From contig JASFNW010000003.1 of NCBI GenBank assembly GCA_050116835.1, positions 6,483 to 70,482 of the forward strand: 64,000 nucleotides of DNA, in the 5' to 3' direction. Below the pieces are notes generated by a model, which saw only the letters and a list, made by a program, of their open reading frames with translations, was not told where the DNA came from and made no database searches. A program made the position numbers and the translations under genes. Each line of letters opens with the position of its first letter. The first letter of the stretch is position 1. This document shows, piece by piece, positions 1,457 to 30,382 of this stretch. Source of the DNA: Desulfobacterales bacterium. GTDB taxonomy: Bacteria; Desulfobacterota; Desulfobacteria; Desulfobacterales; JAHEIW01.

Positions 1457-1909
1457 TTAGTCTGGCGATGGGTTGGCAATCTCCAAAATCTTTGTGATCT
1501 TTGGCTGGTAGGCATTTTGGGCGGCCATTTTATTCGCCCGAACTTTCATGATCCGCAGCGCAGCGAAAAAGAAGGCAAATCCCAGCAGAACAGACAGGGC
1601 CGATGGATTTACTGAGATGAGGGAAGATAGCATTTGTCCGAAGACAGCGCCGATGACCAGAAAAATAATGGGAAAAACATAGATTAAAAATGTGGCCTTC
1701 AATAAGGACCGGGTTTCAAAGCTCAAAACAATCCGATCCCCTTCTCTGGCACCGGCGATGTTTATCGCCTTGACTTCCATGTCCGGGCTGTTGCCGAGGG
1801 TATGGCACGAATTTCTTGCCGTGCATCCCTGGCAGGCGCCGCTCCGGGTTGTTTTGACCCAGGCAGTTTCAGAATCTGTCTGCAGGACGATGCCCTGTTC
1901 CGTCGCCAA
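1457..1909 (-). CDS. RseC/MucC family (SoxR-reducing system-like) membrane protein
   Basis: 150 aa with an N-terminal Cys cluster (CQGCTARNSC) followed by two TM helices, which is typical RseC architecture. The start is TTG with a GGGAG SD. Confidence 0.7.
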   Translation of the reverse strand: MATEQGIVLQTDSETAWVKTTRSGACQGCTARNSCHTLGNSPDMEVKAINIAGAREGDRIVLSFETRSLLKATFLIYVFPIIFLVIGAVFGQMLSSLISVNPSALSVLLGFAFFFAALRIMKVRANKMAAQNAYQPKITKILEIANPSPD

Positions 1910-2164: not shown

Positions 2165-4267
2165 TTAGCTGGAAACTTCAGTCGACTCCTTGGTCTCATC
2201 GGTCTCGGTTGTTTTCGTGTGGACATAGCAGATCAACCCACATTGAAGACACCGATCCGCTTCTTGCTGAGCCGTACTGGCCGAGAAACCTTTTTCAATT
2301 TCACCGCATAGAGCCAGTTCTTTGCCGCTGCAAATGGGCATAATCTGACGCTGGCTGGGCTGCACATTTTCGACATGATACACATTTTGCACGGTTGATT
2401 GCGGGGTGATCACATGCTCGGTCAGGTTCGGTGATATCCCGTGCATGATCTGATGGATTGAGGCAGCCGCCCGACGACCCGCACCGATGGCCTTTATGGC
2501 AGCGCTATAATCCGCCAGCACGTCACCTTCTGCAAACAGACCGACTTCATCCTTAAGGGCGGGTTGTTTATATGGTTGGGTTCCTTCCCAGGACAAAATC
2601 ACATCCGGTGGTAAGTCCGCCGCATCGGTTCCCTGCGCTTCTTCACCCTCCGGTCTTGTCCGGGTAAAAACCAGTTCGGGAAACCGTCCGGTGGCAAATA
2701 TCAATGTCTGAGCCGCTAGACTCGTTGCTGCAGCGGTGTCGGCTTCGATATAGTCAACCTGTTTGAGCTGATCAGCTTCTCCAATTAGCCGATTAATTGC
2801 CACATTGTAAATAATGTTAAGATCGGACATGTCGCTTTCTTCCAGCTCTGCTTCTGAAATGGGACTGTTTTCCCAGCTCTCGCGGAACAAAACGGTGATG
2901 TTTGTTGCGCCCCTTTCCTTGCAAATTTTAGCGGCATCAAGCGCCAATTTACCCCCACCGGCAATCACAACATCAGGGGTAATCGATAGCGCCTCTGTCC
3001 GCTCGGCGCCAAATCGCATCAGATCAACCAGCATGTAGGTGCCGGGAATCGGTGATTCGATATCATCTGTCGCCCCGCGCGCCAGGCGGCTGTCCCATCC
3101 GCCGGCGGCCAGAAATACCGCGTCATAACCTTCCTCAAGCAATGATTGCAAAGAGAAATCACGACCCAGCACCTTTTGGGTTTCAATTTTAACGCCCATT
3201 TCAACGATGCCTTCAATATCCCAATCCAGTATCTCCTCGGGCAATCGATCCTTTGATATGGCACTTCTGAGCAGTCCTCCCAGTTTTGCGGTAGCTTCGA
3301 TTACCGTTGCATCGTGTCCCAGACGCGCCGTAAAAAACGCAACCGACAGACCTTCCACGCCGCCGCCGACAACCGCAATTTTACGGCCGGTATCCGGCGC
3401 CTTGTAAGGCAGGATGCGCTTGCCGCTTTCTTTTTCATAATCGGCGGCATAGCGCTTTAAAAAATTGATGGCCACCGGCTCATCAATATAATTTCGTCGG
3501 CATTCCAGCTCACAGGGTCGCGGACAAATTCGGCCAATTACAGCTGGGAAGGGATTGCGTTCCTTGATGACCTGAACGGCGCGGTGATTATTGCCAATTG
3601 AAATTTGATGAATGTATTCCCGGATATTAATACCGGCCGGGCACCCCCGCTGACAGGGTGTCGTGCATTCATCGGTCGTATATTCCCGGATAATCCTTCG
3701 CGTAATTGATGAAAGGTTAATAATGTGTTTGGGACACACGCGTTCGCAGGTTCCGCAGCCCGTGCATCTTTGTTCGATAACGACCGGCAAACCTTTGGGA
3801 CCCATTCGGATGGCATTAAAGGGACAGGCCCTGACACACGTTCCGAGGCCCAAACAGCCGATGGTACATACTTTCATGCCGCCGCCGAGCAATGCCACTG
3901 CCCGGCAATCATCAAGACCGTCGTACACATATTTGGTATCGGCATCCTCAACTCCAAAATAACAGCCCGGCTTGGCGATATCCGGCTCAACGGCTTCGAT
4001 CTTAACGCCCATAATCGCGGCAATGGCTTCAGCCACTTCCGCCCCGGCGGCCACACAAGAATTGGGTGCCGATGTACCGGCAACGATGGCCTCTGCGTTC
4101 GCGCTGCAACCCGGCAGCCCACAACCGCCTCAGTTGGCACCGGGCAATTCTTCTTCGATCGACAGAATCTTGGGATCAACATACACATAGAATACCTTGG
4201 ATGCGATGGCTAAAATAATGCTGATGGCCAATCCCATGCCGCCCATTAAAATGATTGCATCAACCAT
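2165..4267 (-). CDS. RnfB-like Fe-S domain / GltD(NfnB)-like FAD-NAD(P) oxidoreductase fusion with in-frame TGA (candidate Sec at codon 46)
   Basis: ATG 4267 with a GAGGTG SD opens a frame of 700 sense codons plus the stop codon. The only interruption is a TGA at 4132..4130. The N-terminus is a TM helix followed by LPGAN-TGA-GGCGLPGC (RnfB motif). This is followed by 2x[4Fe-4S] motifs, the GltD-type CPxxC...CPRPCELEC motifs and two GxGxxG dinucleotide folds. Confidence 0.75.
4095..4128 (-). promoter_or_regulatory. candidate bacterial SECIS hairpin immediately 3' of the in-frame UGA
   Basis: On the minus strand the upper stem is GCUGC/GCAGC with apical loop CGGGUU, 17-22 nt after the UGA. The lower stem is extendable with bulges. 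Folded by eye only. Confidence 0.45.
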
Positions 4268-4289
4268 TTGAACACCTCAGATCCATTTA

Positions 4290-6077
4290 TTATTCAATTG
4301 CATCAAATTTGCATTTTTCGAAGCACGTCATACATTTGATGCATTTTTCCTTATCGATAACCGCAACCGCTTTCTTTTTCCAGGTAATGGCCTCCACCGG
4401 GCAGGCTCGAAAACACATGCCGCATTTCGTACAGATTTCCGGTTGCACCTCAAATTTCAACAGCGCCACACAGCGTTTGGCCGGACATCGTTTTTTGATG
4501 ACATGAGCCTCGTATTCATCTCTAAAATATCGCAACGTCGAAAGCACCGGATTGGGTCCCGTCTGGCCCAAGCCGCATAGCGCCGCTTCCTTGATTGTAG
4601 CGGAGAGTTCCTCCAGGGTTGAAATATCTTCAGGGGCTCCGTGGCCTTCACAGATCTTTTCAAGCAGTTGCAGCAGACGCCGGGTGCCTTCACGACACGG
4701 TGTGCACTTCCCGCAGGATTCATCCTGCACGAAATCCATGAAAAAGCGCGCCATGTCGACCATGCAGGTATTTTCGTCCATCACAATCGCACCGCCCGAG
4801 CCCATGATGGCACCGACCTTGGCAATTTCTTCATAGTCTATAGGGATATCCAGATGTTGCTCGGGGACGCAACCGCCGGAAGGCCCCCCCAGCTGCACGG
4901 CTTTAAATTTTTTCTTGTTGGGAACCCCGCCGCCGATATCATAAATCATCGTTCTGAGCGTTGTGCCCATCGGCACTTCTACCAGGCCGATGTTGTTGAC
5001 ATCGCCAGAAAGCGCAAACACTTTGGTCCCCTTACTGCTTTCTGTACCAACACTGGCGTACCAGTCCCCGCCGTTGAGAATAATTTGTGAGATGTTGGCC
5101 AGGGTTTCGACATTGTTTAGAATAGTCGGTTTTTCCCATAAACCTTTTAGCGCTGGAAACGGAGGGCGGGGACGCGGCATCCCGCGTTTGCCCTCAATAG
5201 AGCGCATCAGGGCCGTCTCTTCCCCGCAAACAAACGCGCCGGCGCCCTGGTAGATGTCAATGTCGAAGTCAAAACCGGACCCCAGGATATTGCTGCCCAG
5301 CAATCCGTATTCCCGGGCCTGATCGATGGCAAGGCCCAATCTTCGGATAGCCAGCGGATATTCGGTGCGCGCATAAATGTAGCCCTGCCGGGCGTTGATT
5401 GCCCGCGCAGCAATCAGCATGCCTTCCAGCACGGCATGCGGATCGGATTCCAGTATGCTGCGATCCATAAACGCTCCCGGATCACCTTCATCTGCATTGC
5501 ACAACACGTATTTGCTGTCACCTCCGCTTTTGCTGGCAAACTCCCATTTGAGCCCGGTGGGGAACCCGGCGCCGCCGCGCCCTCTTAAACCCGATTTTTT
5601 TACCTCGGCGATGATTTCTTCCGGTTGCATTTCCTGTAAAGCCTTTGCGGCGCCGAAATACCCGTCACGGGCAATGTACTCGTCAATGACCTCCGGATCG
5701 ATGGCCCCTTTGTTGCGCATCGCCCAGAACATTTGATGCCTGAAAAAGGGGATTTCACTCATGCTGGGAATGGTTTCCTTGGAAGCCGGCTCCACATAAA
5801 ATAGCTTTTTGACCGGGCGCCCTTTGAGAAAATGTTCCTCAACCAGAAGTGGAATGTCTTTCACCTTCAGCTTCTGGTAAAAAATTCCCTCGGGCTGAAC
5901 CAGCATGACAGGCCCCACCGCACAAAAACCGTTGCAACCGGTCTCGATAATCTTAATTTCATCCGCAAGCCCCTGGCGCTCAAGCTCTTTTTGAAGTTCT
6001 TCCTGAAATATATGACTCTTATTTGCATGACAGCCTGTTCCGCCACACAACATTAACTGGGTTCTGACTTTATTCAT
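4290..6077 (-). CDS. NuoF/HydB-like NADH-binding FMN Fe-S subunit (N-terminal 2Fe-2S thioredoxin-like domain, C-terminal 2x[4Fe-4S])
   Basis: 595 aa with GLRGRGGAGFPTGLKW (FMN/NADH site), CGKCTPCREG (N3 cluster) and C-terminal CTKCGMCFRACP / CIKCMTCFEKC motifs. Confidence 0.92.
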   Translation of the reverse strand: MNKVRTQLMLCGGTGCHANKSHIFQEELQKELERQGLADEIKIIETGCNGFCAVGPVMLVQPEGIFYQKLKVKDIPLLVEEHFLKGRPVKKLFYVEPASKETIPSMSEIPFFRHQMFWAMRNKGAIDPEVIDEYIARDGYFGAAKALQEMQPEEIIAEVKKSGLRGRGGAGFPTGLKWEFASKSGGDSKYVLCNADEGDPGAFMDRSILESDPHAVLEGMLIAARAINARQGYIYARTEYPLAIRRLGLAIDQAREYGLLGSNILGSGFDFDIDIYQGAGAFVCGEETALMRSIEGKRGMPRPRPPFPALKGLWEKPTILNNVETLANISQIILNGGDWYASVGTESSKGTKVFALSGDVNNIGLVEVPMGTTLRTMIYDIGGGVPNKKKFKAVQLGGPSGGCVPEQHLDIPIDYEEIAKVGAIMGSGGAIVMDENTCMVDMARFFMDFVQDESCGKCTPCREGTRRLLQLLEKICEGHGAPEDISTLEELSATIKEAALCGLGQTGPNPVLSTLRYFRDEYEAHVIKKRCPAKRCVALLKFEVQPEICTKCGMCFRACPVEAITWKKKAVAVIDKEKCIKCMTCFEKCKFDAIE

Positions 6078-6235: not shown

Positions 6236-6589
6236 TTACCACGACCCATCCAACCCCCGAAGTCCATTAACGTATAACCGGCCGCTGGCAACAAACAGTG
6301 AGTATTTGGTCAACATACAGGGCATTTCATAGAATTTTGCCAGTTCGATGACGGGCGCATCGGGTCTTTTGCCTCGAACAAACACCACCGCCGCCACGTC
6401 AGCAACTTTTGCGGTCCGCAAAACCTGCTCGGTTGTCAGACCGGTGAGCAGCAGTGCATCTTTGGCAACCGCCGACAACACATCTGCCATCAGATCAGCG
6501 CCGCCGGCTCCCACGACGTTGCGATCCAGCTGATCCTCCCCCGCTAACACATTGGCATCCAAAATATGCTGAACTTCAAAAAGTTTCAT
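6236..6589 (-). CDS. DRTGG domain protein
   Basis: 117 aa that aligns by eye with the two other DRTGG ORFs in this window (...VLAGEDQLDR.V.G....DLM.DVL...LLLTGLTT.QV.RTA...). Confidence 0.8.
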   Translation of the reverse strand: MKLFEVQHILDANVLAGEDQLDRNVVGAGGADLMADVLSAVAKDALLLTGLTTEQVLRTAKVADVAAVVFVRGKRPDAPVIELAKFYEMPCMLTKYSLFVASGRLYVNGLRGLDGSW

Positions 6590-6606: not shown

Positions 6607-7101
6607 CTACTCATACTTTTTTAAAACATCGATGACTTTATCAGCCTTGATATCACCGTAGGTATCCGCATCGACCACGAGCACCGGTGCCAGGCCGCAT
6701 GCCCCCAGACACCGGACAGCTTCCAGCGAAAAACGCCGGTCGTCGGTGGTGCCGCCTTCGCTGATATGGTATTCATTGCTGATACGGCTTATCACTTCCT
6801 TGATTCCCTTCACATAGCAGGCGGTGCCCATACAGGCCCTTATCTGGTGCCTTCCTTTGGGGGCCAAGGAAAATAATGAATAAAATGACGCGACGCCGAA
6901 AACTTCACTGCGCGACAGGTTGAGACCATCGCTGATATAATCAATCAGCTCAACCGGCAGCCACCCGACGACATCCTGACATTCACGCAAAACCCCAATA
7001 ATCGAACCCGGGATATTGCAGTTGGCGGCGATGATTTTATCAATTTTAAGCCACATTTCATCTGATATATCGGGATGTCCGGGACGGGTGTCAGGTGCCA
7101 T
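6607..7101 (-). CDS. NuoE/HydC-like thioredoxin-like [2Fe-2S] subunit
   Basis: 164 aa with the CMGTACYVKG ... CLGACGLAPV Cys pattern. A GAGGGAG SD lies upstream. Confidence 0.9.
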   Translation of the reverse strand: MAPDTRPGHPDISDEMWLKIDKIIAANCNIPGSIIGVLRECQDVVGWLPVELIDYISDGLNLSRSEVFGVASFYSLFSLAPKGRHQIRACMGTACYVKGIKEVISRISNEYHISEGGTTDDRRFSLEAVRCLGACGLAPVLVVDADTYGDIKADKVIDVLKKYE

Positions 7102-7363: not shown

Positions 7364-7420
7364 AGTGTCTTTCTTAATCTTACCATCAAAGATTCACGTA
7401 CTGAAACCGTGAGGAAAACA

Positions 7421-8260
7421 ATGCACAATCTATCGCAGCGCCTGGCAGAGACGACCGCGTTTATCAAAAGCAAAACCGATGTCGTGCCGCATATCGGTTA
7501 CTTAACCGGCACCGGTCTGGGTGAAAGCGCCGAATCCATGACGATCGACACGGCCATCGAGTATCGAAACATCCCCCATTTTCCAATCTCAACGGTTCAA
7601 ACACATAAAGGCCGTTTGCTCACCGGTTGGCTGAGCGATTGCCCACTCATCGTCATGCAAGGCCGCTTTCATCTCTACGAGGGCTATCGTCCCACAGAGG
7701 TCGCCTACCCGGTTCGGTCGATGCAACAACTGGGCGTTAAGATTCTCATCCTTTCAAATGCCGCCGGCGGATTGAATCCCTCTTTTCGCCCCGGCGATAT
7801 CATGCTGATCAGCGACCATATCAACCTCACCCTCACAAACCCGCTCATCGGCCCCAATGATGAGCGCCTGGGCGTTCGTTTTCCGGATATGTCCAGCGCT
7901 TATAATCCGGAACTCATTTCCGCTGCCGAAGACGCCGCCCGGGCCGCCGGATTACAATTACAAAAAGGAGTTTATGTCGGCCTCAAAGGACCTGCACTCG
8001 AAACGCCGGCCGAAGTCGCATTTCTACAAACCATCGGAGCGGAAGCTGTGGGCTTCTCAACGGTACAGGAGGTTATCGCAGCCGTTCATGGTGGCCTGCG
8101 GGTAATGGGGATGTCCATCATTACCAATGTTCATAATCCCGCCGATCCGGTTCCGGCCGGCGTTGAAGAGATCATTGCCGTGGCCCAAAAGGCTGCGCCT
8201 TCACTGGAAACTATTCTTAAAGGAGTTGCCGGGAAAATCTATGAAACCGAAATCGACTGA
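7421..8260 (+). CDS. purine nucleoside phosphorylase (trimeric PNP/MTAP family)
   Basis: Contains HFP.STV..H.G, GRFH.YEG and SNAAGGLNP motifs. ATG 7421 with a GAGGAA SD is preferred over GTG 7409. Confidence 0.85.
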   Translation: MHNLSQRLAETTAFIKSKTDVVPHIGYLTGTGLGESAESMTIDTAIEYRNIPHFPISTVQTHKGRLLTGWLSDCPLIVMQGRFHLYEGYRPTEVAYPVRSMQQLGVKILILSNAAGGLNPSFRPGDIMLISDHINLTLTNPLIGPNDERLGVRFPDMSSAYNPELISAAEDAARAAGLQLQKGVYVGLKGPALETPAEVAFLQTIGAEAVGFSTVQEVIAAVHGGLRVMGMSIITNVHNPADPVPAGVEEIIAVAQKAAPSLETILKGVAGKIYETEID

Positions 8261-9560
8261 TATTTTGATCCTGAACGGTACCATCCTCACAATGGATAAC
8301 GACCAGACCATTTTAAAAGACGGCGGGTTGGCCATCGCCGAAGACCGCATTACCGCGATCGGGCCGGCTGCAGAATTTTCAGAGTGGCGGGCTTCGCAGG
8401 TGATCGACGTCGGCGGCGGAATCATCATGCCGGGCCTGATCAATACCCACACCCACGCCGCCATGACCTGCTTCAGAGGGCTGGCGGACGACCTTCAATT
8501 AATGTCCTGGCTTAACGATCATATTTTTCCGGCTGAAGCCAAACTGGATGAGCAAAAGGTCTATAGCGCCACCCTGCTGGCCTGCGCGGAAATGATTATG
8601 TCGGGCACCACCTGTTTTTGCGATATGTACCTGTTTGAGGATGCCGTGGCCCATGCCGCCGGTGATGCCGGTATGCGGGCGGTGGTCGGGGAAGTCCTGT
8701 ATGATTTTGATTCACCCAATTATGGGCCCATCGCCCAAGGATTCGAATATACCCGCAAGCTGGTCGATACCTGGCAACATCACCCGCGGGTCAGCATTGC
8801 CGTAGAACCGCATTCAGCCTATTTGTGCGCACCTGAATTGCTGCAGGAAGCATTTGACCTGGCACAGGATTTCAAGCTGCCGCTGGTAATCCATCTGGCT
8901 GAATCCGAAAGTGAAGTCGCGCAGGTTAAAGAACGTTTTGATCGGACACCGGTGCAACACCTTGCTGAACTCGGGCTTCTGGCCCCGAATGTGGTGGCCT
9001 GTCATTGTGTGGAGTTAACAGAAAAAGATATTACCTTGCTGAAACGTTATGATGTCAAAGTCGCACACAATGCGGAAAGCAACATGAAACTGGCCTCCGG
9101 CGTGGCGCCGATTCCCAAATTATTAGATGAGGGCATTTGCGTGGGATTGGGAACGGATGGTTGCGCCAGTAACAACAATCTGGATCTGTTTCTGGAAATG
9201 GATACCGTGGCCAAGCTCCATAAGGCCAAAACATTAGACCCCACCGTAATGGATGCACAGACGGTTCTTAAAATGGCCACCCTCAGAGGCGCACAGGTTT
9301 TGGGCCTTGAGTCGCATATCGGTTCGCTTGAAACAGGTAAAAAAGCCGATCTGATTATCGTTGACACGGCAAGACCGCATTTGACGCCCATGTACAACCC
9401 GGTTTCCCATATGGTGTATGCGGCGCAGGGCAGCGATGTTACGACAGTGATCATTGAGGGTGCCATTGTGATGGAGGACGGGCAGCTTAAAACCATGAAT
9501 CTCGACAGCGTTTTAGATGATGTCAACCGGATCGCACGGGACATCATAGCCGGAAAATAA
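8241..9560 (+). CDS. mtaD: amidohydrolase, MtaD-type 5'-methylthioadenosine/S-adenosylhomocysteine deaminase
   Basis: Contains MPGLINTHTH..MT.FRGLADDL.L..WL and GTDGCASNN motifs. ATG 8241 overlaps the PNP 3' end by 20 nt. Confidence 0.85.
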   Translation: MKPKSTDILILNGTILTMDNDQTILKDGGLAIAEDRITAIGPAAEFSEWRASQVIDVGGGIIMPGLINTHTHAAMTCFRGLADDLQLMSWLNDHIFPAEAKLDEQKVYSATLLACAEMIMSGTTCFCDMYLFEDAVAHAAGDAGMRAVVGEVLYDFDSPNYGPIAQGFEYTRKLVDTWQHHPRVSIAVEPHSAYLCAPELLQEAFDLAQDFKLPLVIHLAESESEVAQVKERFDRTPVQHLAELGLLAPNVVACHCVELTEKDITLLKRYDVKVAHNAESNMKLASGVAPIPKLLDEGICVGLGTDGCASNNNLDLFLEMDTVAKLHKAKTLDPTVMDAQTVLKMATLRGAQVLGLESHIGSLETGKKADLIIVDTARPHLTPMYNPVSHMVYAAQGSDVTTVIIEGAIVMEDGQLKTMNLDSVLDDVNRIARDIIAGK

Positions 9561-9693
9561 GGGCCTCGGGGAAGTTGGTTTAAATTCTTGGCCATCGCGC
9601 GGTGCGTTGCACAGTAACGGATTATCTATTTTGACATAGAATAGCGCTTTCAACAGGTGAAATGATATCGGATTTTAGACGAAAAGGTGAACG

Positions 9694-11010
9694 ATGACTT
9701 ACGATCTTGTCATCCACAACGGCACGCTTGTGACCGCCAATCGGCGATTTGAGATAATCCCCGATGGACTGCTGTGCATCAACGGAGACAAACTTGAACG
9801 CCTCGGGACCATTGCTGCCGAGCAACCACTGCCCGCAGCAACTGAAACGATCGATGCCGGCGGCGGCTTGATCATGCCGGGCCTGGTGAACAGTCACACC
9901 CATTTGCCCATGACTCTGTTTCGCGGTTTGGCCGACGACCTGCCGCTGGACAGCTGGTTGAACGACCATATCTTTCCGGCTGAAAGCGCTCACCTTCAAC
10001 CCGATAGCGTGCGCTGGGGGACGCTGCTGGCATGCGCTGAAATGCTGCTTTCAGGCACCACCACTTGCTGCGATGGGTATTTTTTTGAAGACCAAGTGGC
10101 CGAGGCCGTTGAAACCAGTGGTATGCGCGCCGTATTAGGCCAGGGGGTTATCGATTTTCCGGCGCCGGGGGTACCGGATCCCGAACACAATATAAAAATT
10201 CCGCGTGCGTTCATATCCAAATGGCAGCAAAGGTCTGCTTTGATCACCCCATCGGTGTTTTGCCATTCAGCGTACACCTGCAGCGGCGAAACTTTGAAAA
10301 ACGCCAAAAGGTTGAGTACGGACGCCGGCCTGCGCTTTCAAATCCATGCGGCCGAGACACAAGTCGAGGTCCGGCAGATCCGGCAAAAATATAACACCAC
10401 ACCCATCGGTTATTTAGATCAACTGGGGACACTGGATGAAAATACCTTATTGGTGCACTGTGTCTGGTTAGAGGAAGCGGATATTGAACGGATTGTAAAA
10501 AGCAAGGCCTGTATTTCCCATAATCCGGAAAGCAATGCCAAATTGGCTGCCGGAATCGCCCCGGCACCGCAACTTCTAAGAGCCGGCATCACGCTTGGGC
10601 TCGGGACCGATGGATGTGCAAGTAATAACAACCTGGATATGTATCATGAAATGGACATGGCTGCCAAAATTCACAAGGCAAAAACACATGATCCCACCAC
10701 CATGGATGCCCGAACCGTCGTAGAAATGGCTACCATCGGTGGCGCCCGGGCGATCGGGCTGGATCAGCAAATCGGTTCGCTCGAAGAGGGCAAACAAGCC
10801 GATGTGATCGTCGTCGAGAGCCGCAGCCCGCACCTGACGCCGATGTATCATCCTGAGTCCCATATCGTTTATACCGCAAAAAGCGCAGATGTTCGGGATG
10901 TGATCGTCGCCGGACGCATCCTGGTGCGCAATCGACAGATTCTCAGTTTGGATGTTGAGCGAATTATGTCAGAAGTCAACGAGATTGCCGATCAAATTCA
11001 AAGGAAATAA
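9694..11010 (+). CDS. second MtaD-type nucleoside deaminase paralog
   Basis: 438 aa that is colinear with the preceding ORF (MPGLVNSHTHLPMTLFRGLADDLPLDSWL, GTDGCASNNNLDM). An AAAGGTGA SD lies upstream. Confidence 0.85.
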   Translation: MTYDLVIHNGTLVTANRRFEIIPDGLLCINGDKLERLGTIAAEQPLPAATETIDAGGGLIMPGLVNSHTHLPMTLFRGLADDLPLDSWLNDHIFPAESAHLQPDSVRWGTLLACAEMLLSGTTTCCDGYFFEDQVAEAVETSGMRAVLGQGVIDFPAPGVPDPEHNIKIPRAFISKWQQRSALITPSVFCHSAYTCSGETLKNAKRLSTDAGLRFQIHAAETQVEVRQIRQKYNTTPIGYLDQLGTLDENTLLVHCVWLEEADIERIVKSKACISHNPESNAKLAAGIAPAPQLLRAGITLGLGTDGCASNNNLDMYHEMDMAAKIHKAKTHDPTTMDARTVVEMATIGGARAIGLDQQIGSLEEGKQADVIVVESRSPHLTPMYHPESHIVYTAKSADVRDVIVAGRILVRNRQILSLDVERIMSEVNEIADQIQRK

Positions 11011-11011
11011 A

Positions 11012-12721
11012 ATGAATATGACCGAAATTATTAAAGCCGCTCACGGCGAAAAACCCGTTGATGTGCTTCTCACCAACGGACGTATGGTCAATGTTTTAAC
11101 CGGTGAAATCGAACAGCAGGCAATCGCCATCAGCGATGGTTTTATTGTCGGTTTCGGCCAATATAAAGCCGAAAAGACTTTGGATTTAAACAACCGCTTT
11201 GTCGCGCCCGGCTTTATCGATTCCCACGTTCATATCGAAAGCGCCATGACCTGCATTTCCGAGTTTGCCCGGGCGGTCGTGGTGCATGGTACAACGGCCA
11301 TAGCCGCCGATCCGCATGAAATCGCCAATGTGATGGGGGCAGAGGGCATTGCTTATATGCTGCAATCGGCAAAAGAACAACCGGTCAATATTTACTTCAC
11401 ACTGCCTTCATGCGTGCCGGCAACTGATATGGAAACCGCCGGCGCCCGTCTGAACGCCGAAGATCTTGCACCCTTTTTTGATCATGAGAGAATTGTGGCG
11501 CTGGCTGAAATGATGAACTATCCGGGTGTCATCTTTGGCGACCCGGAAGTTCTGGCCAAAATACGCGCGGCCAAAAAGCACCGTAAGCCGGTCGACGGTC
11601 ATGCGCCCGGACTCAAGGGGCAGGCGCTGAATGCGTATGTCGCTGCCGGAGTGCAAAGTGATCATGAATGCACCACCGCCCGGGAAGCCAGAGAGAAGCT
11701 CGCTGCCGGGATGCATATTATGATCCGTCAGGGAACCGGCGCTAAAAATTTACAGGCACTGCTGGAGGCGGTAAACGCACGAACAGCCAGACGTATGATG
11801 TGGTGTACCGATGATCGCCACCCCCATGACCTGATCACAGAGGGCCATATCGATTCGATTGTGCGCGAAGCCATTCAATCCGGCCTGGACCCAATTTTAG
11901 CCATTCAAATGGCTACCCTAAATCCGGCTGAATATTTCCGATTGGACCACCTGGGCGCTATCGCGCCCGGCCGCCAGGCTGATCTGTTGGTATTTTCCAA
12001 TTTGCAAAAACCGATTGTCGAACAGGTATATTGCCGCGGTCTATTAACGGCTGAGAACGGAAAGGTTTTACCGCATATTCAAACACCGCCGTCTGCCACC
12101 ATTGCCCCGTCGATACAGGTTGATTTGCGGAAGATCGACTTGGCCATTGCTGACCAAAACAAGAGGATTCGGGCCATTGAAATCGAAGCCAATCAGTTGA
12201 TTACCCATGAGCGCATCGAACAGCCGACTATCGAGAACGGTCAGGCCGTAAGCGATCCATCAAGGGATTTGCTCAAAATCGCTGTTGTCGAACGCCACAG
12301 CGGCAGCGGTAATATCGGCAAAGGCTTTGTTAAAGGCTTCGGCCTCAGACACGGCGCCCTTGCCTCCAGTGTCGCCCACGATTCACACAATATCATCATT
12401 GTGGGCACAACCGATGCGGACATGCAAGCAGCATTGCAAACCGTGGTACAAATGGGCGGTGGTCTGGCAGCCGTGTCAAACCAAAAAGTTCTTGCCCGTC
12501 TGGCTTTGCCGCTGGCCGGTTTGATGTCTTTTGAACCGGTCGGTGAGGTGCGCAATCAACTGGACCGCTTGATCGGCAGCGTGCACAAGCTGGGAAGCGT
12601 CCTACCGGATCCTTTTATGACGCTATCCTTTTTGGCATTGCCGGTCATACCGGCATTGAAGCTGACCGATAAAGGCCTGATCGATGTAAACCGGTTTGAA
12701 GTTGTTTCTTTATTTGTGTGA
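11012..12721 (+). CDS. ade: adenine deaminase
   Basis: About 569 aa with PGFIDSHVHIES and the length and architecture typical of Ade. ATG 11012 follows an AAAGGAAA SD. Confidence 0.85.
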   Translation: MNMTEIIKAAHGEKPVDVLLTNGRMVNVLTGEIEQQAIAISDGFIVGFGQYKAEKTLDLNNRFVAPGFIDSHVHIESAMTCISEFARAVVVHGTTAIAADPHEIANVMGAEGIAYMLQSAKEQPVNIYFTLPSCVPATDMETAGARLNAEDLAPFFDHERIVALAEMMNYPGVIFGDPEVLAKIRAAKKHRKPVDGHAPGLKGQALNAYVAAGVQSDHECTTAREAREKLAAGMHIMIRQGTGAKNLQALLEAVNARTARRMMWCTDDRHPHDLITEGHIDSIVREAIQSGLDPILAIQMATLNPAEYFRLDHLGAIAPGRQADLLVFSNLQKPIVEQVYCRGLLTAENGKVLPHIQTPPSATIAPSIQVDLRKIDLAIADQNKRIRAIEIEANQLITHERIEQPTIENGQAVSDPSRDLLKIAVVERHSGSGNIGKGFVKGFGLRHGALASSVAHDSHNIIIVGTTDADMQAALQTVVQMGGGLAAVSNQKVLARLALPLAGLMSFEPVGEVRNQLDRLIGSVHKLGSVLPDPFMTLSFLALPVIPALKLTDKGLIDVNRFEVVSLFV

Positions 12722-12878: not shown

Positions 12879-13232
12879 ATGAAGATATCAGAAATTGTTG
12901 ACGCGCTGGATGCGACAGTCTTAGCCGGAGAGGACAAACTGGATGAAATCATCACCAGGTGCGGCGCCAGTGACCTGATGAGTGACGTGCTGGCCGGATT
13001 TTCTGAAGATTGTATCCTTTTAACCGGTTTGACGACCGTGCAGGTCATCCGCACGGCAATGGTGGCCGGGGTCGGGGCGGTGGTCATTGTCAGAAAGAAA
13101 CAGCCACCCCAGGAGGTAATTGATATGGCCAAAGACCAGGGTATTCCCCTGATATCAACCCCGTATTCGATGTTTGTCTCCTGCGGCAGATTGCATGCCT
13201 GCAATCTGACCGGGCTCGATGGGCAACGATAA
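12879..13232 (+). CDS. DRTGG domain protein
   Basis: 117 aa, a paralog of ORFs 6236..6589 and 15075..15425. Confidence 0.8.
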   Translation: MKISEIVDALDATVLAGEDKLDEIITRCGASDLMSDVLAGFSEDCILLTGLTTVQVIRTAMVAGVGAVVIVRKKQPPQEVIDMAKDQGIPLISTPYSMFVSCGRLHACNLTGLDGQR

Positions 13233-13293
13233 CCTGTCATGGGTCCCTGCCCGGCCACACCGAACAACCGCACAATCTAAAAATTTTAGACCC

Positions 13294-13734
13294 ATGCCCC
13301 AATTAAAAAGAAGCTTTCCGATCAAAGCCAGAGATTTCATTCGTGCGGGCGAAGCCTCGATCAATGTTCAAAATCTTCTCAAATCAATGGATTTCGAACC
13401 GCGCCTGATTCGGCGGATCGCCATCTGCGGCTATGAGAGCGAAATGAACGTGGTCATGCACGGTGGTGACGGCAAGCTGAGTATTGAACTGGACAGCGAC
13501 CGGCTGATTTTGGAAGTAAAGGATGATGGCCCGGGGATAGAAGACATTGAGCTGGCCATGCAGGCCGGCTACTCAACGGCCAACGATGACCATCGTGAGA
13601 TGGGTTTTGGCGCCGGCATGGGACTGCCGAACATGAAAAAAAATTCAGACCGGATTCATATCGAATCTCTAAAAAACAACGGCACCATCGTTCGAATGAT
13701 TTTTTTCATCCCTGACAAAGGAAAAATCGATTGA
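13294..13734 (+). CDS. GHKL-type anti-sigma-factor-like Ser/Thr kinase (RsbW/SpoIIAB-like HATPase_c)
   Basis: Has an N-box (ESEMNVVMHG), G1 (DDGPGI) and G2 (GFGAGMGL). The start was chosen at ATG 13294, and the upstream part of the ORF overlaps the DRTGG gene. Confidence 0.75.
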   Translation: MPQLKRSFPIKARDFIRAGEASINVQNLLKSMDFEPRLIRRIAICGYESEMNVVMHGGDGKLSIELDSDRLILEVKDDGPGIEDIELAMQAGYSTANDDHREMGFGAGMGLPNMKKNSDRIHIESLKNNGTIVRMIFFIPDKGKID

Positions 13735-15041
13735 GCAAAAAGCTAACCTCAACTTGTTTTGTCCGTTTTGACCAAGACCTGTGCGCCGGCCGCGGGCAAT
13801 GTCTGAAGGTCTGCCCCACCAAAGCCATCCGGATCAAAAACAAGAAGGCCGTGCGGATTGTTGAGCAATGTATCGGTTGCGGGGAATGCATTCGCGTCTG
13901 CCGCGAACGCGCCGTGAGTGCAGCAACCGAGGGACCTGAAATCCTCAGCGACGATCAAGTTGCTATTGCGCTGGTATCACCGGTTCTCTACGCGCAGTTT
14001 CCCGGAGTCATGCCCAAGGATGTGCTGCTCGGTCTCCGTCAAATGGGTTTCCAACACACTATCGACATGTCCTATTTTCTTGAAATGTTCCAGTATGCCA
14101 CCGAAGAATTCATCAGTCGCAACCGCACGTCCAAACAGGCCCCCTGGCCCCTGATTTCACCCATATGCCCGATTGTCGTTCGGCTGATTGCCTTTAAATT
14201 TCCCAACCTGTTGCCCAACGTCCTGCCGGTACTGCGGCCGGTGGCCTTGATGGCGCGCGAAGTCAAACGACACCTCATTCCCGAATACCTGGACAAAGAC
14301 CGGGCGGTTGTTTTATACTACATCAACCCCTGCCCGACCAAAAAAGATCCCGTATGTTTGCCGGCACGCAAACGGCCTGTGCCGACAGAAATTGCTCTGG
14401 GAATCAACGATATCTATCCGGAACTGTTAAGACATGTGGAGCAGATTAAAGCAGCGGATGCCATTCCCTTCTATCAGACCCGTTTTGAATACGAAACATG
14501 TGCCACCGGCAACGCCTCCATGTGGGGCATGTCCGGCGGCGAAATCGCCGACATGGATATCGAGCGGTCCCTGGCGGTTTCAGGCATAGAGGAAACCATT
14601 CACTATCTTGAAAAAATCGAAATGGGGCTGTTTCAGGATATTGAATATATCGAGTTGCGCACCTGTCGGGAAGGCTGCCTGGGCGGCGTGCTCAACGCCA
14701 TCGATAAATATCTGGCCAAAAGCACCGTTCAAAAAATGATCAAAAGATACGGCCTTGGCCGCCGCTTGCATCGCGAAAATATTTTGCGGATGTACGAGAA
14801 AGGCGAGTTTCAAAGCGAAAAGGATCCGTCCAAGCTGACAAGTCTGTTTGGCGCCCGCAAAGCGGCGCTGTCAATTGATTCGATGCAAGAAATTGACAAA
14901 GTGATGCAGCTGATCAAAGGGGCCAACTGCACTGTATGCGGCGCTCCAGACTGCCGTACATTTGCCGAAGATGTAGTGCGGGGCGAAGCGGTTTTAAAAG
15001 AATGTCTGTTCATCGCTGCGCAAAGGAAGACAAAACGGTAA
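13731..15041 (+). CDS. HydS-like (putative sensory) [FeFe]-hydrogenase large-subunit homolog with N-terminal 2x[4Fe-4S] and C-terminal RnfB-type Fe-S domain
   Basis: Ferredoxin motifs are CAGRGQCLKVCP and CIGCGECIRVC. H-cluster-like motifs are SPICP, NPCPTKKD and ELRTCREGCLGG. The C-terminus carries GANCTVCGAPDC. The TTG start overlaps the previous stop codon. Confidence 0.8.
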   Translation: MSKKLTSTCFVRFDQDLCAGRGQCLKVCPTKAIRIKNKKAVRIVEQCIGCGECIRVCRERAVSAATEGPEILSDDQVAIALVSPVLYAQFPGVMPKDVLLGLRQMGFQHTIDMSYFLEMFQYATEEFISRNRTSKQAPWPLISPICPIVVRLIAFKFPNLLPNVLPVLRPVALMAREVKRHLIPEYLDKDRAVVLYYINPCPTKKDPVCLPARKRPVPTEIALGINDIYPELLRHVEQIKAADAIPFYQTRFEYETCATGNASMWGMSGGEIADMDIERSLAVSGIEETIHYLEKIEMGLFQDIEYIELRTCREGCLGGVLNAIDKYLAKSTVQKMIKRYGLGRRLHRENILRMYEKGEFQSEKDPSKLTSLFGARKAALSIDSMQEIDKVMQLIKGANCTVCGAPDCRTFAEDVVRGEAVLKECLFIAAQRKTKR

Positions 15042-15074
15042 TCCGCCAAATCGACATGAAAGGATGCTGCCAAA

Positions 15075-15425
15075 ATGGTGGTCAAAGACCTGGTGGAAAG
15101 ATTCGAACTCGAGGTGGCCGGCGGGCAAAATGGGCTCGACCGCGAGGTGAACGGGGGATATTGCGGCGATCTGTTAAGCGAGGTGATGGGCAACGCCCCG
15201 GCCGGAAGTGTCTGGTTAACCGTTCAGGGGCATCAGAATATCGTGGCCGTTGCGGTGCTGCGCGAATTGGCCGCTATTATCATTACCGGCGGCCAGAAAC
15301 CGGATGCGGAAACCATCCAAAAAGCGGACCAGGAAGGCATTCCAGTTTTGCAGGGCCCGGATTCGTCATTTCGACTGGCCGGTCGACTTTTCAGCGCCGG
15401 GGTCGGGAACCCATCATCCGAATAA
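15075..15425 (+). CDS. DRTGG domain protein
   Basis: 116 aa with LDREVNGGYCGDLLSEVMGNA...NIVAVAVLRELAAIIITGG, typical of the DRTGG proteins found in hydrogenase loci. Confidence 0.8.
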   Translation: MVVKDLVERFELEVAGGQNGLDREVNGGYCGDLLSEVMGNAPAGSVWLTVQGHQNIVAVAVLRELAAIIITGGQKPDAETIQKADQEGIPVLQGPDSSFRLAGRLFSAGVGNPSSE

Positions 15426-15483
15426 TCTGCGATCCGGGAGAAATAGCAGCGCAGAGGTGAGCGTACATAAAAATTTAATCACT

Positions 15484-15555
15484 AAGGTCACGAAGCGCAG
15501 GAAGGCCATAAAGAAAGCATTCATAATTATCATTAATCCGTCTGTGTTCTTCGTC
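15484..15555. repeat. degenerate ~70-nt intergenic repeat (copy 1)
   Basis: AAGGTCACGAAGCGCAGG...ATAAAGAAAGC...TGTGTTCTTCGTC aligns by eye with the reverse complement of 16401..16465. Confidence 0.5.
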
Positions 15556-15653
15556 TGCTTCGGGGTTAGAAAGTAGTACCAAATGAAACAATTAATGGTT
15601 GCAAGCATGATTTGGAACCCATTTTGTTTTATGGCGGTGGAGGAATTCAGCCG

Positions 15654-16391
15654 GTGTTAAAAAAAATCAAAGCCGACCTCCACATTCACTCCTGCCTCTC
15701 ACCCTGCAGTGACTGGGACATGAGCCCCAGAAAGATTGTTGAAAAAAGTCTCGAGCAGCAGCTTGATTTAATCGCCATTTGTGATCACAATACCGCCGAG
15801 AACGTTGCCGCAACCATGCGCGCGGGCAAGCGGCAGGGTATTGCTGTTCTGCCGGGAATGGAAATTTGCTCCAGGGAAGAAGTGCATCTGGTCACCCTCT
15901 TTGAAAGAATCGAAGATGCCCGGAAAATGCAGGAATTTATTTACAAGCATCTCAGCGGTAAAAATCAGCCACAGGTATTCGGGCATCAGGTGGTTGCCGA
16001 TGAGCACGATCAAGTCCTGGGCGAAAATTCCCGCCTGCTGATCGGCGCCACCGGGCTGAGTTTGATTGATATTGTGAACAAGGCTCATCACATCGGTGGC
16101 ATCTGTATCAGTTCCCATGTGGACCGCCCATCTTACAGTTTAATCGGTCAGCTGGGATTTATTCCCGAAGATCTTCAATTAGACGCCGTCGAGGTATCCT
16201 ACCGCGTGCCCCTTAAAAAAGCGCGCATCCAGATTCCGGGCATCGGCAGCTATCCGTGCGTGACAGCTTCGGATGCTCATTTTTTACACGACATCGGCAA
16301 GGTGTGGACGGAATTCTTTCTAGCTGCGCCAAGCTTTGAAGAACTGGCGCTGGCATTAACCGGCAAAGAAGGACGCCATATCATCAATTAG
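15654..16391 (+). CDS. PHP (polymerase/histidinol phosphatase) domain protein
   Basis: Contains KADLHIHSCLSPCSD and ICDHNT motifs. GTG 15654 with a GGAGGA SD 8 nt upstream is preferred over TTG 15612. Confidence 0.8.
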   Translation: MLKKIKADLHIHSCLSPCSDWDMSPRKIVEKSLEQQLDLIAICDHNTAENVAATMRAGKRQGIAVLPGMEICSREEVHLVTLFERIEDARKMQEFIYKHLSGKNQPQVFGHQVVADEHDQVLGENSRLLIGATGLSLIDIVNKAHHIGGICISSHVDRPSYSLIGQLGFIPEDLQLDAVEVSYRVPLKKARIQIPGIGSYPCVTASDAHFLHDIGKVWTEFFLAAPSFEELALALTGKEGRHIIN

Positions 16392-16400
16392 TTTCCATCC

Positions 16401-16465
16401 GGGAAGAACACAAAGAAATTGATGATTTTACTTTATTCCGCGTGCACCTTGATGACCTTTATGGT
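16401..16465. repeat. degenerate ~70-nt intergenic repeat (copy 2, inverted)
   Basis: The reverse complement ACCATAAAGGTCATCAAGGTGCACGCGGAATAAAG...TGTGTTCTTCCC matches copy 1. Confidence 0.5.
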
Positions 16466-16535
16466 AAAAAAAAATTGTCCGATAATCGCAGACGGCCAAT
16501 CATCGACCGACAATGACTTTGAAAATTAGATTTAT

Positions 16536-17093
16536 ATGCGTGAGTTATCCTTACATATATTAGATGTCGTCGAAAACGGAATTACCGCCGGGGCGAATTG
16601 CATCTGGATCAAGGTTGAAGAAGACCATCAGTCCGATCAGCTTAAAATCGCAATTCGCGATAACGGCCGGGGCATGCCGATTGAAAAACTGCAGAATATC
16701 AACGATCCCTTTATCACATCCCGTATCACGCGCAGGGTCGGTTTGGGGCTCTCGCTATTAGCCGCCGCGGCCGAGCGCTGCGAAGGGACTGTGCGGGCTG
16801 ACACGGTACCCGGCAAAGGGACCGAGGTTGAAGCAACCTTTCAACATAGCCATATCGACCGCGCCCCACTAGGCGATATGGCGGCCACGATTACAACGCT
16901 TATCATCGGAAACCCGGGAATTGATTTTGTCTATTCACATCGCATCGATGGCGAGGAATTTAGTCTGGATACGCGTGAATTCCGGGCCGAAATGGAAGAT
17001 CTATCACTGTCTGACCCGGTGGTTGTCCATCATTTAGCCGAATCGATCCGATCCTCGCTCAAAGAACTGACGACAAATGAAGATGCATCTTAA
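16536..17093 (+). CDS. GHKL-superfamily ATP-binding protein (histidine-kinase-like ATPase without sensor or DHp domain)
   Basis: 185 aa with HILDVVENG (N-box), IRDNGRGMP (G1) and GLGLSLL (G2). Confidence 0.75.
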   Translation: MRELSLHILDVVENGITAGANCIWIKVEEDHQSDQLKIAIRDNGRGMPIEKLQNINDPFITSRITRRVGLGLSLLAAAAERCEGTVRADTVPGKGTEVEATFQHSHIDRAPLGDMAATITTLIIGNPGIDFVYSHRIDGEEFSLDTREFRAEMEDLSLSDPVVVHHLAESIRSSLKELTTNEDAS

Positions 17094-26385: not shown

Positions 26386-26600
26386 ATGATCAACTAGTTT
26401 GAAATAAGTTCACTCGAAAGTTGTCCGATACATATAAAGAATTTATATGGACCTTTGCAAGCAATAACCGGCAAAGATCTTGACATTGGCCTTTAATCCG
26501 AATATGTGAATTAAGGATATACTTGGATTAACCAGAAATTACAAATAAACACACCAGATCTATGGTGACCTACCATTCAACTTAAAAAAAGGAGGTGCAA

Positions 26601-29180: not shown

Positions 29181-30359
29181 TTAGTCACACAGCTCAAACA
29201 GGGCGGCTGCGCCCATACCGCCGCCGATACACATAGATTCAACGCCGTATTTTACCCCGCGCTGCTTCATATTGCTGAGCAGAGTGGCGCACAGCTTGGC
29301 GCCGGTGCAGCCCAGGGGATGCCCCAGGGCGATGGCGCCGCCGTGAATGTTGATGTTTTGCTGATCGATTCCAAGTTTATTAATACAGTAAAGAGCTTGC
29401 GAAGCAAAGGCCTCGTTGATTTCAAACAAATTAATATCTTTTAAGTCCATGCCGGTCAGTTTCATCAGTTTGGGGATCGCCAGCGCCGGTCCGATGCCCA
29501 TTTCATCCGGTTTGCAGCCCACGGTGGTATAGCCCTTAAACTTGGCAATCGGCTGGACACCCAGCGCTTCGACTTTGTTTTCACTCATAATAACACTGGC
29601 CGCCGCTCCGTCGGTCATCTGGGACGAGTTGCCGGCGGTCACCGAGCCGCCGGCGGCAAATACCGGATTCAGGCCGGCCAGCCCTTCCAGGGTCGTATCC
29701 TCCCGGATGCCGTCATCAAAATCCTGCAAAAAGGCTTCTTTTTTATAGGTCCCATCTTTTTGCGGAACGTAACGGGTGGCCGGGGTGGGCACAAGCTCTT
29801 TATACAACTTTTTGTTTTTGGCCTCGGCGGCTTTCATCTGGGATTGATAGGCAAATTCATCCTGGGCTTGGCGGGAGACATCGTAGCGGTTGGCCACGTT
29901 TTCAGCGGTAATGCCCATCGAAACATACAGGTCGGCCATTTTTTTAGTGTATTCCGGATGCGGCCGCGGCAGATTGCCGCCCATGGGGACATAGGTCATG
30001 GACTCCAGGCCGCCGCCGATGACGATATCCGACCAGCCGGCCATGACCCGCAAGGCGGATTGGGCAATGGCTTCCAGACCCGAAGCGCAGAAGCGGTTGA
30101 CGGTGGCCCCGGTCACAGCAACAGGGAATCCGGCAATCTGTGAGGCGATCCGCCCGATATTCAGTCCCTGCTCGGCCTCGGGAAACGAGCAGCCGATCAT
30201 GATGTCTTCGACATCTTTTTTTTCAAGCCCTTTGGTTTTGTCGACGGCCGCTTCCAAAATAAAAGTCAGCAAATCCTCCGGCCGGGTATCTTTAAAAGCG
30301 CCTTTGCTTCGTTTACACCCCGGTGTTCTAATCGATGTCACGATATAGGCATCTCTCAT
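29181..30359 (-). CDS. acetyl-CoA C-acyltransferase (thiolase)
   Basis: Contains thiolase motifs (NRFCASGL, GGGMG near the C-terminus). ATG 30359 lies 7 nt after an AGGAGGA SD. Confidence 0.9.
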   Translation of the reverse strand: MRDAYIVTSIRTPGCKRSKGAFKDTRPEDLLTFILEAAVDKTKGLEKKDVEDIMIGCSFPEAEQGLNIGRIASQIAGFPVAVTGATVNRFCASGLEAIAQSALRVMAGWSDIVIGGGLESMTYVPMGGNLPRPHPEYTKKMADLYVSMGITAENVANRYDVSRQAQDEFAYQSQMKAAEAKNKKLYKELVPTPATRYVPQKDGTYKKEAFLQDFDDGIREDTTLEGLAGLNPVFAAGGSVTAGNSSQMTDGAAASVIMSENKVEALGVQPIAKFKGYTTVGCKPDEMGIGPALAIPKLMKLTGMDLKDINLFEINEAFASQALYCINKLGIDQQNINIHGGAIALGHPLGCTGAKLCATLLSNMKQRGVKYGVESMCIGGGMGAAALFELCD

Positions 30360-30382
30360 GATCATTCCTCCTATTATGGCTT

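Follow-up and report, generated by a model that had tools for sequence, protein, structure and literature searches.

The question raised by this locus is whether a TGA codon lying within an otherwise open reading frame of a Desulfobacterales bacterium terminates translation or is decoded as selenocysteine (Sec). The DNA analysed, referred to below as the window, is a stretch of 64,000 nucleotides of contig JASFNW010000003.1 (assembly GCA_050116835.1, positions 6,483 to 70,482 of the forward strand). The gene concerned encodes a predicted membrane-anchored fusion of an RnfB-type iron-sulfur module to a GltD-like flavoprotein. On the minus strand its frame is open from 4267 to 2165, comprising 2103 nt or 701 codons, with a stop at 2165 and one internal TGA at codon 46 (4130..4132). 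Comparison of this frame with its orthologues indicates that the UGA is very probably a selenocysteine codon within a single gene of 700 residues. The same reading almost certainly recurs across a whole clade, where the predicted Sec is accompanied by a minimal selenocysteine insertion sequence (SECIS) inside the open reading frame (ORF) and falls at the first cysteine ligand of the [4Fe-4S] site of the FdI domain.

The coding sequence, 700 residues and a stop with Sec at residue 46 (2165..4267, minus strand), is defined by the frame, by its domains and by full-length cysteine orthologues. In the ORF list the gene starts at GTG 4054 because of the TGA at codon 46. The original prediction held instead that the frame runs upstream through a single TGA (4132..4130) to ATG 4267, and reading and translating the minus strand again confirmed this, the new translation matching the earlier one exactly. 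The start codon (4267-4265) is preceded at a spacing of 5 nt by the Shine-Dalgarno sequence GAGGTG (4278-4273), so that the initiation region occupies 4265..4278 on the minus strand. A TAA at 4292..4290, 22 nt before the start codon, closes the upstream NuoF-like ORF, and the span of the gene is a multiple of three; each of these features had been described correctly. The N-terminal pattern M-x-(D/E/T/A)-A is conserved among orthologues. In the window protein the residue in question stands in the context ELPGAN-U-GGCGLPGCSANAEAIVAG, where, by codon alignment and by comparison with solved RnfB chains, the UGA codon takes the first ligand position of a U-x2-C-x4-C-x16-C [4Fe-4S] motif.

Codon 46 was surveyed in the window and in 80 further loci, one genome per species, giving 81 sequences. 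The labels of these loci are nearly all those of metagenome-assembled genomes of Desulfobacterales or related Deltaproteobacteria, together with Desulfonema magnum; individual loci are cited below by number (L007 and so on) where they have to be told apart. TGA occupies the codon in 28 sequences, TGC in 44 and TGT in nine, the last two making 53 cysteine forms. A clean Cys/Sec column at residue 46, as the original prediction would have it, is therefore observed. The frame is intact in all 81 sequences, both over the 45 codons upstream and in the region downstream of codon 46. The flanks are near-identical in the two forms, reading ...LPGAN_GGCG.PGC... and ...ELPGAN[U/C]GGCGLPGC.... A separate search at the protein level drew on the top 120 matches from a collection of 5.8 billion proteins, at 71-100% identity. 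Four of these (P0002, P0003, P0004 and P0120) are proteins of 694-701 residues which carry the Pfam domain PF04060 and read ...ELPGANCGGCGLPGCSANAEAIVAG..., with cysteine exactly at the position of the window's TGA. The other 116 have 606-643 residues and lack PF04060. The full-length cysteine orthologues, at 71-85% identity to the window protein, read ELPGANCGGCGLPGC.

Both sides of the TGA evolve as coding sequence. Upstream of the TGA, over 44 codons, mean amino-acid identity within the Sec clade is 80%, with 64% of codon differences synonymous. The corresponding values are 92% and 82% over the 25 codons that follow the TGA up to the mis-called start. On both sides of codon 46 the Sec clade equals or exceeds the cysteine orthologues in these measures. 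A decayed leader and two independent genes are ruled out by this pattern, and the orthologues accordingly present neither two separate genes nor a degenerate N-terminal region. Alignment of UGA to cysteine in homologues, conserved flanks and purifying selection on either side, the hallmarks of a bacterial selenoprotein gene, are thus all found at this locus.

Further evidence comes from the sequence directly 3' of the UGA, which in all 28 TGA forms reads GGGCUGCCGGG(U/C/G)UGCAGC. The predicted apical hairpin of the SECIS (4103..4118, minus strand) consists of a stem in which GCUGC (4118-4114) pairs with GCAGC (4107-4103) and a loop CGGGUU (4113-4108), and is supported by its pairing and by frozen codons. 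Counted from the first nucleotide after the UGA it spans +12 to +27, with G12-C16 paired to G23-C27 and the loop at +17 to +22. These coordinates agree with the hairpin first proposed, and its placement is that of a bacterial SECIS. When the U of the UGA is instead numbered 1, the stem begins at nt 15, leaving a spacing of 11 nt, and the loop contains G23 and U24. The minimal SECIS of E. coli fdhF has the same 11-nt spacing and an important G23 and U24 (PMC8659212); its bulged U17, by contrast, is not reproduced here. A stem-loop at the proper spacing, with a G in the apical loop and kept in UGA orthologues, is what defines such an element, and each of these properties is seen in the window hairpin.

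The hairpin lies within coding sequence for G-L-P-G-C-S, so that constraint on the RNA can be separated from constraint on the protein. Synonymous diversity was scored per codon and per column over the degenerate codons from -24 to +59 around the UGA, the comparison set being the 50 cysteine forms outside the Sec clade (the 53 less L007, L009 and L020, which are nested within it). Columns +10 to +27 are unchanged in all 28 Sec sequences save for one loop base, the frozen block reaching 4120. Codons +4, +5, +6, +8 and +9 (G, L, P, C and S) have zero synonymous diversity in the Sec clade, and codon +7 varies at its third base alone, which is a loop base. All five stem codons are thus frozen, against none of the 77 other degenerate codons (Fisher p = 3.7e-8). 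The 50 cysteine orthologues use two to five codons for each stem residue, with a diversity of 0.38-0.70, and the flanking third positions are as variable in the Sec clade as in the cysteine forms. All five stem pairs can form in 28/28 Sec forms and in the three nested cysteine sequences, compared with 5/50 of the other cysteine forms. Conservation of the hairpin among TGA orthologues, on which the original prediction depended, is therefore complete, and synonymous freezing confined to the stem is, in comparative terms, the signature of a SECIS.

A number of observations weigh against this interpretation. The folding energy of the region is no better than that of shuffled sequences (z = +0.27 and +0.46 for segments of 76 and 45 nt), single-sequence folding being uninformative in GC-rich coding sequence here; in view of these scores the hairpin alone proves nothing, and it is the comparative evidence that carries the case. 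No covariation is seen in the stem, since all five pairs are invariant across the 28 Sec sequences. The covariation test is consequently empty, and the argument rests on the freezing of synonymous sites. A scan of 3950..4300 against Rfam at E <= 10 returned no family. RNAalifold, applied to the 28 Sec sequences, prefers another consensus whose first helix (+1 to +17) competes for the stem bases. Turning to the decoding machinery, neither selA, selB, selC or selD nor any other selenoprotein gene is present within the 64-kb window: no SelA, SelB or SelD was recognised by Pfam among the roughly 40 window ORFs scanned, ARAGORN detected no tRNA-Sec in the window (which has no tRNA at all) or in the flanks of the 28 Sec loci, and a search for further long window ORFs broken by one or two TGAs gave no convincing candidate. 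The Sec competence of the source genome is thus judged from its relatives only. Finally, the role of residue 46 as a cluster ligand rests on homology, and FdI was too mobile to be modelled in the RnfB structure 7zc6 (PMC9588780).

The competing helix is a 7-bp hairpin, GGCGGYU-GYG-GGCUGCC, with a 3-nt loop (4129-4113, minus strand), which shares bases with the 5' arm of the SECIS stem and is intact in 23/28 Sec and 7/50 cysteine sequences. It was considered as the SECIS itself and rejected. It begins directly at the UGA and would sit inside the ribosome during UGA decoding; it is broken in 5/28 Sec sequences, and it leaves the invariance of codons +7 to +9 unexplained. It could nevertheless compete with, or precede, formation of the SECIS.

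The lineage to which the Sec loci belong makes heavy use of Sec. One TGA locus (L019) is that of the Olavius Delta-1 symbiont, for which the largest selenoproteome known at the time, SelD included, was reported (PMC1976440). Cultured Desulfobacteraceae encode selA, selB and selD, as D. multivorans does (PMC5109826), and D. autotrophicum also encodes selC. This heavy use of Sec speaks against the most serious alternative, in which read-through of the UGA would yield something other than Sec, or Sec only in part, with near-cognate cysteine or tryptophan inserted and the hairpin acting as a general read-through or pausing signal. Such a mechanism would be compatible with the missing Sec genes in the 64-kb window and with a hairpin that neither covaries nor matches Rfam; cysteine is moreover chemically adequate, being used by 53 orthologues. 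It is nonetheless improbable, since the hairpin has the canonical placement and G/U loop content of a bacterial SECIS and RnfB-type UxxC selenoproteins are already in the catalogues. Furthermore, a TGA that is maintained clade-wide when TGC or TGT is a single step away implies selection beyond anything that cysteine provides.

It could also be supposed that the TGA is a true stop, so that the locus would express a membrane peptide of 45 residues and a separately started soluble enzyme of 623-641 residues, or would be a pseudogene. This is how public gene calls treat the related locus L081, which is given ORFs of 45 and 641 residues (9818-9955 and 10001-11926), and the 606-643 residues of 116/120 top database matches agree with it. 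Termination at codon 46 would, however, sever the transmembrane helix from the rest of the protein and split a four-ligand iron-sulfur motif behind its first ligand. Nowhere in the region is conservation higher than in the 25 codons that separate the TGA from the called start (92% amino-acid identity, in frame with both sides in 28/28). No Shine-Dalgarno sequence and ATG occur at a conserved downstream position, and gene callers choose starts that yield 623, 629, 639 or 641 residues. The frozen hairpin would also be left unexplained. A true stop therefore appears even less credible than read-through by another amino acid. The least credible explanation of all is an error of sequencing or assembly. 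TGA does differ from TGC and TGT by one base, but the same codon is present in 27 other independent, species-level assemblies, and metagenome contigs scanned for the exact AAY-TGA plus downstream hairpin string yielded 102 stretches that carry it, two of them labelled as sediment metagenome assemblies. A base-call error is effectively excluded on these grounds, and the TGA co-occurs with a hairpin whose freezing is specific to the clade. Decoding as Sec remains by a wide measure the reading to be preferred.

How, then, is this residue placed in the protein? With cysteine placed at position 46, the Pfam search identifies the FdI domain as PF04060 ('putative Fe-S cluster') at residues 41-72 (4052..4147, minus strand; E = 6.7e-11), the match covering profile positions 1-32 of 33. 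Its ligands by homology are Sec46, Cys49 (4123-4121), Cys54 (4108-4106) and Cys71 (4057-4055), at the spacing U46-x2-C49-x4-C54-x16-C71. A hydrophobic helix at about residues 4-25, AIILMGGMGLAISIILAIASKVF (4193..4258, minus strand), aligns to the N-terminus of solved RnfB and is a predicted membrane anchor. Beyond FdI, Pfam identifies a 2x[4Fe-4S] ferredoxin domain (137-184), Fer4_20 (201-282) and a pyridine-nucleotide-disulfide oxidoreductase fold. The order that characterises RnfB, a transmembrane helix, an FdI domain of the form C-x2-C-x4-C-x16/17-C and then a 2x[4Fe-4S] ferredoxin domain, is therefore present. The window protein also passes the TIGR01944 (rnfB) model, with 86.3 bits against a cut-off of 68.7.

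Alignment to solved structures divides the protein into two parts. Residues 5-193 align end-to-end with RnfB of C. tetanomorphum (7zc6_B, E = 5.7e-53) and A. woodii (9eri_B, E = 3.2e-50), and with A. vinelandii RnfB (8ahx_B) the match extends over the first 94 residues. Each of the three chains has cysteine at the Sec site, in the sequence LPGANCGGCG(F/L)(A/P)GC or a variant of it. With the PF04060 match beginning at profile position 1, these chains bear out the original claim that the TGA falls exactly on the first cysteine of the RnfB iron-sulfur motif. The C-terminal module of the fusion is FAD/NAD(P)-binding and GltD/NfnA-like. Residues 199-635 align to NfnA (9n5u_A, E = 4e-73), which for the C-terminal 510 residues is the nearest solved chain, followed by 9bov_A (E = 2e-69) and 8oh5_C (E = 1e-58). 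The Pfam domains and the RnfB and NfnA alignments together support the membrane-anchored RnfB-GltD fusion that had been proposed.

In C. tetanomorphum RnfB the transmembrane helix occupies residues 1-29 and is followed by the small FdI domain, whose CxxCx4Cx17C motif is shared with the corrinoid iron-sulfur protein and is expected to hold a [4Fe-4S] cluster (PMC9588780). FdI is regarded as a mobile carrier of this cluster, RnfB-1, and has been proposed to move back and forth between the fixed clusters of RnfB and the RnfA/E metal site (PMC9588780). From this homology we infer that Sec46 is the first ligand of the mobile FdI cluster.

A paralogous copy of the same domain is found elsewhere in the window, in keeping with the original prediction. 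The HydS-like protein encoded at 13731..15041 (plus strand) carries a C-terminal PF04060 with cysteine at the equivalent position, reading ...LIKGANCTVCGAPDC.... It is a homologue of [FeFe]-hydrogenase, and its copy of the domain, GANCTVCGAPDC, is in the cysteine form. The gene belongs to a regulatory-looking cluster on the opposite strand (13219-17093, plus strand), about 6 kb from the operon described below, which comprises genes for a histidine-kinase-like ATPase, the HydS-like protein, a DRTGG-domain protein (about 15076-15430), a PHP-domain protein and a second HATPase. At locus L082 the HydS-like and DRTGG parts are fused in one protein of 560 residues, whereas in the window they are split by a TAA at 15039-15041. 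A second recoding site at 15039 was considered and rejected, as the stop there is TAA and is followed by a separate DRTGG gene.

The distribution of the two forms suggests how selenium was acquired. In a neighbour-joining tree of 78 full-length proteins all Sec forms fall in one clade. Nested inside it are the three cysteine sequences already mentioned, each with a TGC codon (at locus positions 6136 in L007, 3381 in L009 and 6136 in L020) and a complete hairpin. The simplest history would be one gain of Sec from cysteine in a single clade of Desulfobacterales, followed by at least three recent reversions from Sec to cysteine. L007, L009 and L020 look like recent revertants in which the SECIS persists as a fossil. 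Cysteine sequences derived from Sec homologues have previously been reported to contain remnant SECIS-like structures (PMC1794560). One TGA form lying deep in the Desulfobacterales Sec clade, L025 (JAIVWA010000054.1), is labelled 'Gammaproteobacteria bacterium'; this contig is probably mis-binned.

The fusion gene is the fourth of five in an operon on the minus strand (7101-1457), in the order NuoE-like, DRTGG, HydB-type NuoF, RnfB-GltD and RseC. The first encodes a NuoE/HydC-like subunit with a thioredoxin-like [2Fe-2S] fold (6607..7101) and the second a DRTGG-domain protein (6236..6589), both assigned from Pfam and synteny. The third (4290..6077) encodes a flavoprotein of NuoF/HydB type, with an N-terminal 2Fe-2S domain, a FMN site and a C-terminal 2x[4Fe-4S] domain. 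This assignment rests on Pfam, synteny and solved relatives, the best of which are HydB/NfnB subunits from electron-bifurcating hydrogenases and Nfn (7t2r_B, 1e-259; 9n5u_B, 1e-211; also 7q4v_B and 8a6t_B). Downstream of the fusion lies a gene for a membrane protein of the RseC/MucC family (1457..1909), identified by a domain match and synteny; in most loci it follows the fusion gene directly.

This arrangement is well conserved among Sec loci. Wherever a Sec locus extends far enough upstream, NuoF immediately precedes the fusion gene; RseC is downstream in every Sec locus whose sequence covers that flank (L081 included), and the DRTGG gene was detected in about half. The order NuoE-NuoF-RnfB/GltD-RseC also occurs in many cysteine loci, for example L082. 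Another group of cysteine loci (L032, L033, L037, L047, L053, L054, L057, L059, L061-L063, L067, L073 and L076) is without upstream NuoE/NuoF and has DRTGG-RnfB/GltD(-RseC) only, so that at least two genomic contexts exist for the fusion protein. Desulfonema magnum is an example of this second group, and the genes around it there (exonuclease VII and an SNF2 helicase) are unrelated. No rnfCDGEA genes are adjacent in the window, within ±10 kb in L081 and L082 or at the other loci examined; a classical rnf operon is therefore ruled out there, and the protein may associate in trans with an Rnf core whose genes lie at another place in the genome.

The closest known assembly is instead of the Bfu type, in which HydB-type and HydC-type subunits are encoded with a GltD-like NADP(H) subunit, and the same combination is found here. 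The NfnABC and StnABC complexes (9n5u, 8oh5 and 9bov), electron-bifurcating transhydrogenases of the Bfu family, share with the window operon an NfnA/StnA-like GltD part, a HydB/NfnB-type NuoF and a NuoE/HydC-like subunit. They differ in that StnA and NfnA have a long C-terminal formate-dehydrogenase-like part, absent from the window protein, whilst the window 'A' subunit bears an N-terminal RnfB anchor and FdI and has RseC co-encoded. As read from its genes, the operon joins a Bfu BC core to an 'A' subunit in which an RnfB anchor and FdI replace the hydrogenase- or formate dehydrogenase-like module. The product is probably a membrane-tethered NADH/NADPH/ferredoxin oxidoreductase resembling NfnABC and Stn, an arrangement of which no description was found in the literature.

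A working scheme may be outlined by comparison with characterised systems. On reaching the UGA, the ribosome would meet the hairpin 5'-GCUGC-CGGGUU-GCAGC-3', 11 nt downstream, which would recruit SelB·GTP·Sec-tRNASec. Sec would be inserted at codon 46 and translation would continue to the full 700 residues. Sec46, Cys49, Cys54 and Cys71 would form the [4Fe-4S] site of FdI on a flexible tether beside the membrane helix, and since Sec46 is one of this ligand set its selenolate would be a direct ligand of the cluster. The FdI cluster would shuttle electrons towards membrane subunits, as proposed for Rnf, with the RnfB-type helix and FdI connecting the NfnABC/Stn-like module to a membrane partner. 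Taken further, the Sec-ligated FdI may be the swinging shuttle of an undescribed membrane-tethered NfnABC/Stn-like complex, which would plug a flavin-based bifurcating module into a membrane partner (RseC, or an Rnf core from another locus), selenium having been recruited in one abundant sediment clade of Desulfobacterales to tune the potential or kinetics of the cluster. This last suggestion is a tentative one that may well prove wrong. Were it correct, the pairs of Sec and Cys orthologues (82-85% identity, the three revertants included) would provide a ready-made test of the effect of a selenolate on a [4Fe-4S] cluster.

The relation of this protein to known selenoproteins requires some care. 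The original prediction regarded Sec in an iron-sulfur motif as unusual and could not say whether the family had been listed. The first opinion does not hold: prokaryotic selenoproteins with Sec at a ligand position for an iron-sulfur cluster or another metal site are no exception, and about one-fifth of selenoprotein families are predicted to bind metals or iron-sulfur clusters (PMC13188914). The second point can be answered: an RnfB-type selenoprotein with a UxxC motif is already catalogued as PRK07118 / NF005503, with representatives ABC78902.1 and WP_258165141.1, and is attributed to a 2008 GOS study (PMC9312934, PMC13188914). The family was not found in the cited GOS paper or its supplements, and no alignment is shown there. 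NF005503 is the NCBI model for 'RnfABCDGE type electron transport complex subunit B', with an equivalog cut-off of 252 bits; it matches residues 3-261 of the window protein with 177.6 bits (E = 3e-52), below that cut-off. The catalogued proteins and the window protein have in common an RnfB N-terminal module and UxxC (U-G-G-C in the window), and the Sec column is likely to be the same. The window protein differs in being a 700-residue GltD/NfnA-like fusion encoded in a NuoE/NuoF operon rather than with rnf. In full-text searches of the literature, no explicit account turned up of Sec in RnfB or in a large RnfB-GltD fusion.

Comparable proteins have been described in several other settings. The RnfB subunits of solved Rnf complexes (7zc6_B, 9eri_B and 8ahx_B) have, like the window protein, a transmembrane helix, an FdI of the form CxxCx4Cx16-17C and a 2x[4Fe-4S] domain. 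Unlike it, they have cysteine at the Sec site and extra ferredoxin modules without GltD, and are encoded in rnfCDGEAB operons. The Rnf2 of Desulfobacteraceae, of the Desulfobacula toluolica Tol2 type, includes a 'large RnfB' of about 700 residues with NAD-binding sites, with no mention of Sec (PMC5109826, PMC11887813). As described there, this protein resembles the window protein in size, in its layout of RnfB iron-sulfur and nucleotide-binding parts and in bacterial group. It lies, however, in an rnf2 cluster, whereas the window gene has no adjacent rnfCDGEA. The five selenoprotein genes listed for D. multivorans do not include RnfB (PMC5109826, PMC11887813). Meanwhile, RnfC is a known selenoprotein (PMC5029168), and RnfC, HdrA, FrhD/VhuD, HgcB and CopZ-like 2Fe-2S proteins all provide Sec/Cys pairs in the electron transfer of anaerobes, especially Deltaproteobacteria (PMC5029168, PMC13188914), albeit in other families and at other cluster sites than in the window protein.

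The practical consequence is one of annotation. The gene is mis-called in nearly all members of the clade, losing its anchor and first iron-sulfur domain and leaving an orphan ORF of 45 residues. Reconstructions built on such truncated calls give a soluble 'FAD-dependent oxidoreductase' in place of a predicted membrane-linked redox complex. The organisms concerned are abundant sulfate reducers of sediments, and the correction affects the reconstruction of their metabolism. The understanding of selenocysteine decoding itself is unchanged, the RnfB-type Sec family being in the catalogues already. What the locus adds is a well-supported prediction of Sec ligation of a [4Fe-4S] cluster in a mobile shuttle domain, with close natural cysteine controls, and an apparent case of one gain of Sec followed by repeated loss to cysteine with a fossil SECIS kept. 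Its value thus lies in the corrected annotation, in natural Sec/Cys pairs for iron-sulfur chemistry and in an unusual NuoEF-RnfB/GltD-RseC operon.

Some other genes of the window may be mentioned. Divergent from the operon is a purine-salvage-like cluster (7409-12721, plus strand) encoding a PNP/UDP phosphorylase, two amidohydrolases and an adenine deaminase, and the same neighbours are found in L081. Within it the listed ORF at 8127-9560 shares 134 nt with that at 7409-8260 and therefore probably begins at a later position than listed. An aldehyde:ferredoxin oxidoreductase (AFOR_N/AFOR_C; 26595-28343, plus strand) adjoins a beta-oxidation pair, composed of a thiolase (29181-30407) and a fused 3-hydroxyacyl-CoA dehydrogenase/enoyl-CoA hydratase (30598-33003); together these look like the ordinary metabolism of an anaerobe.

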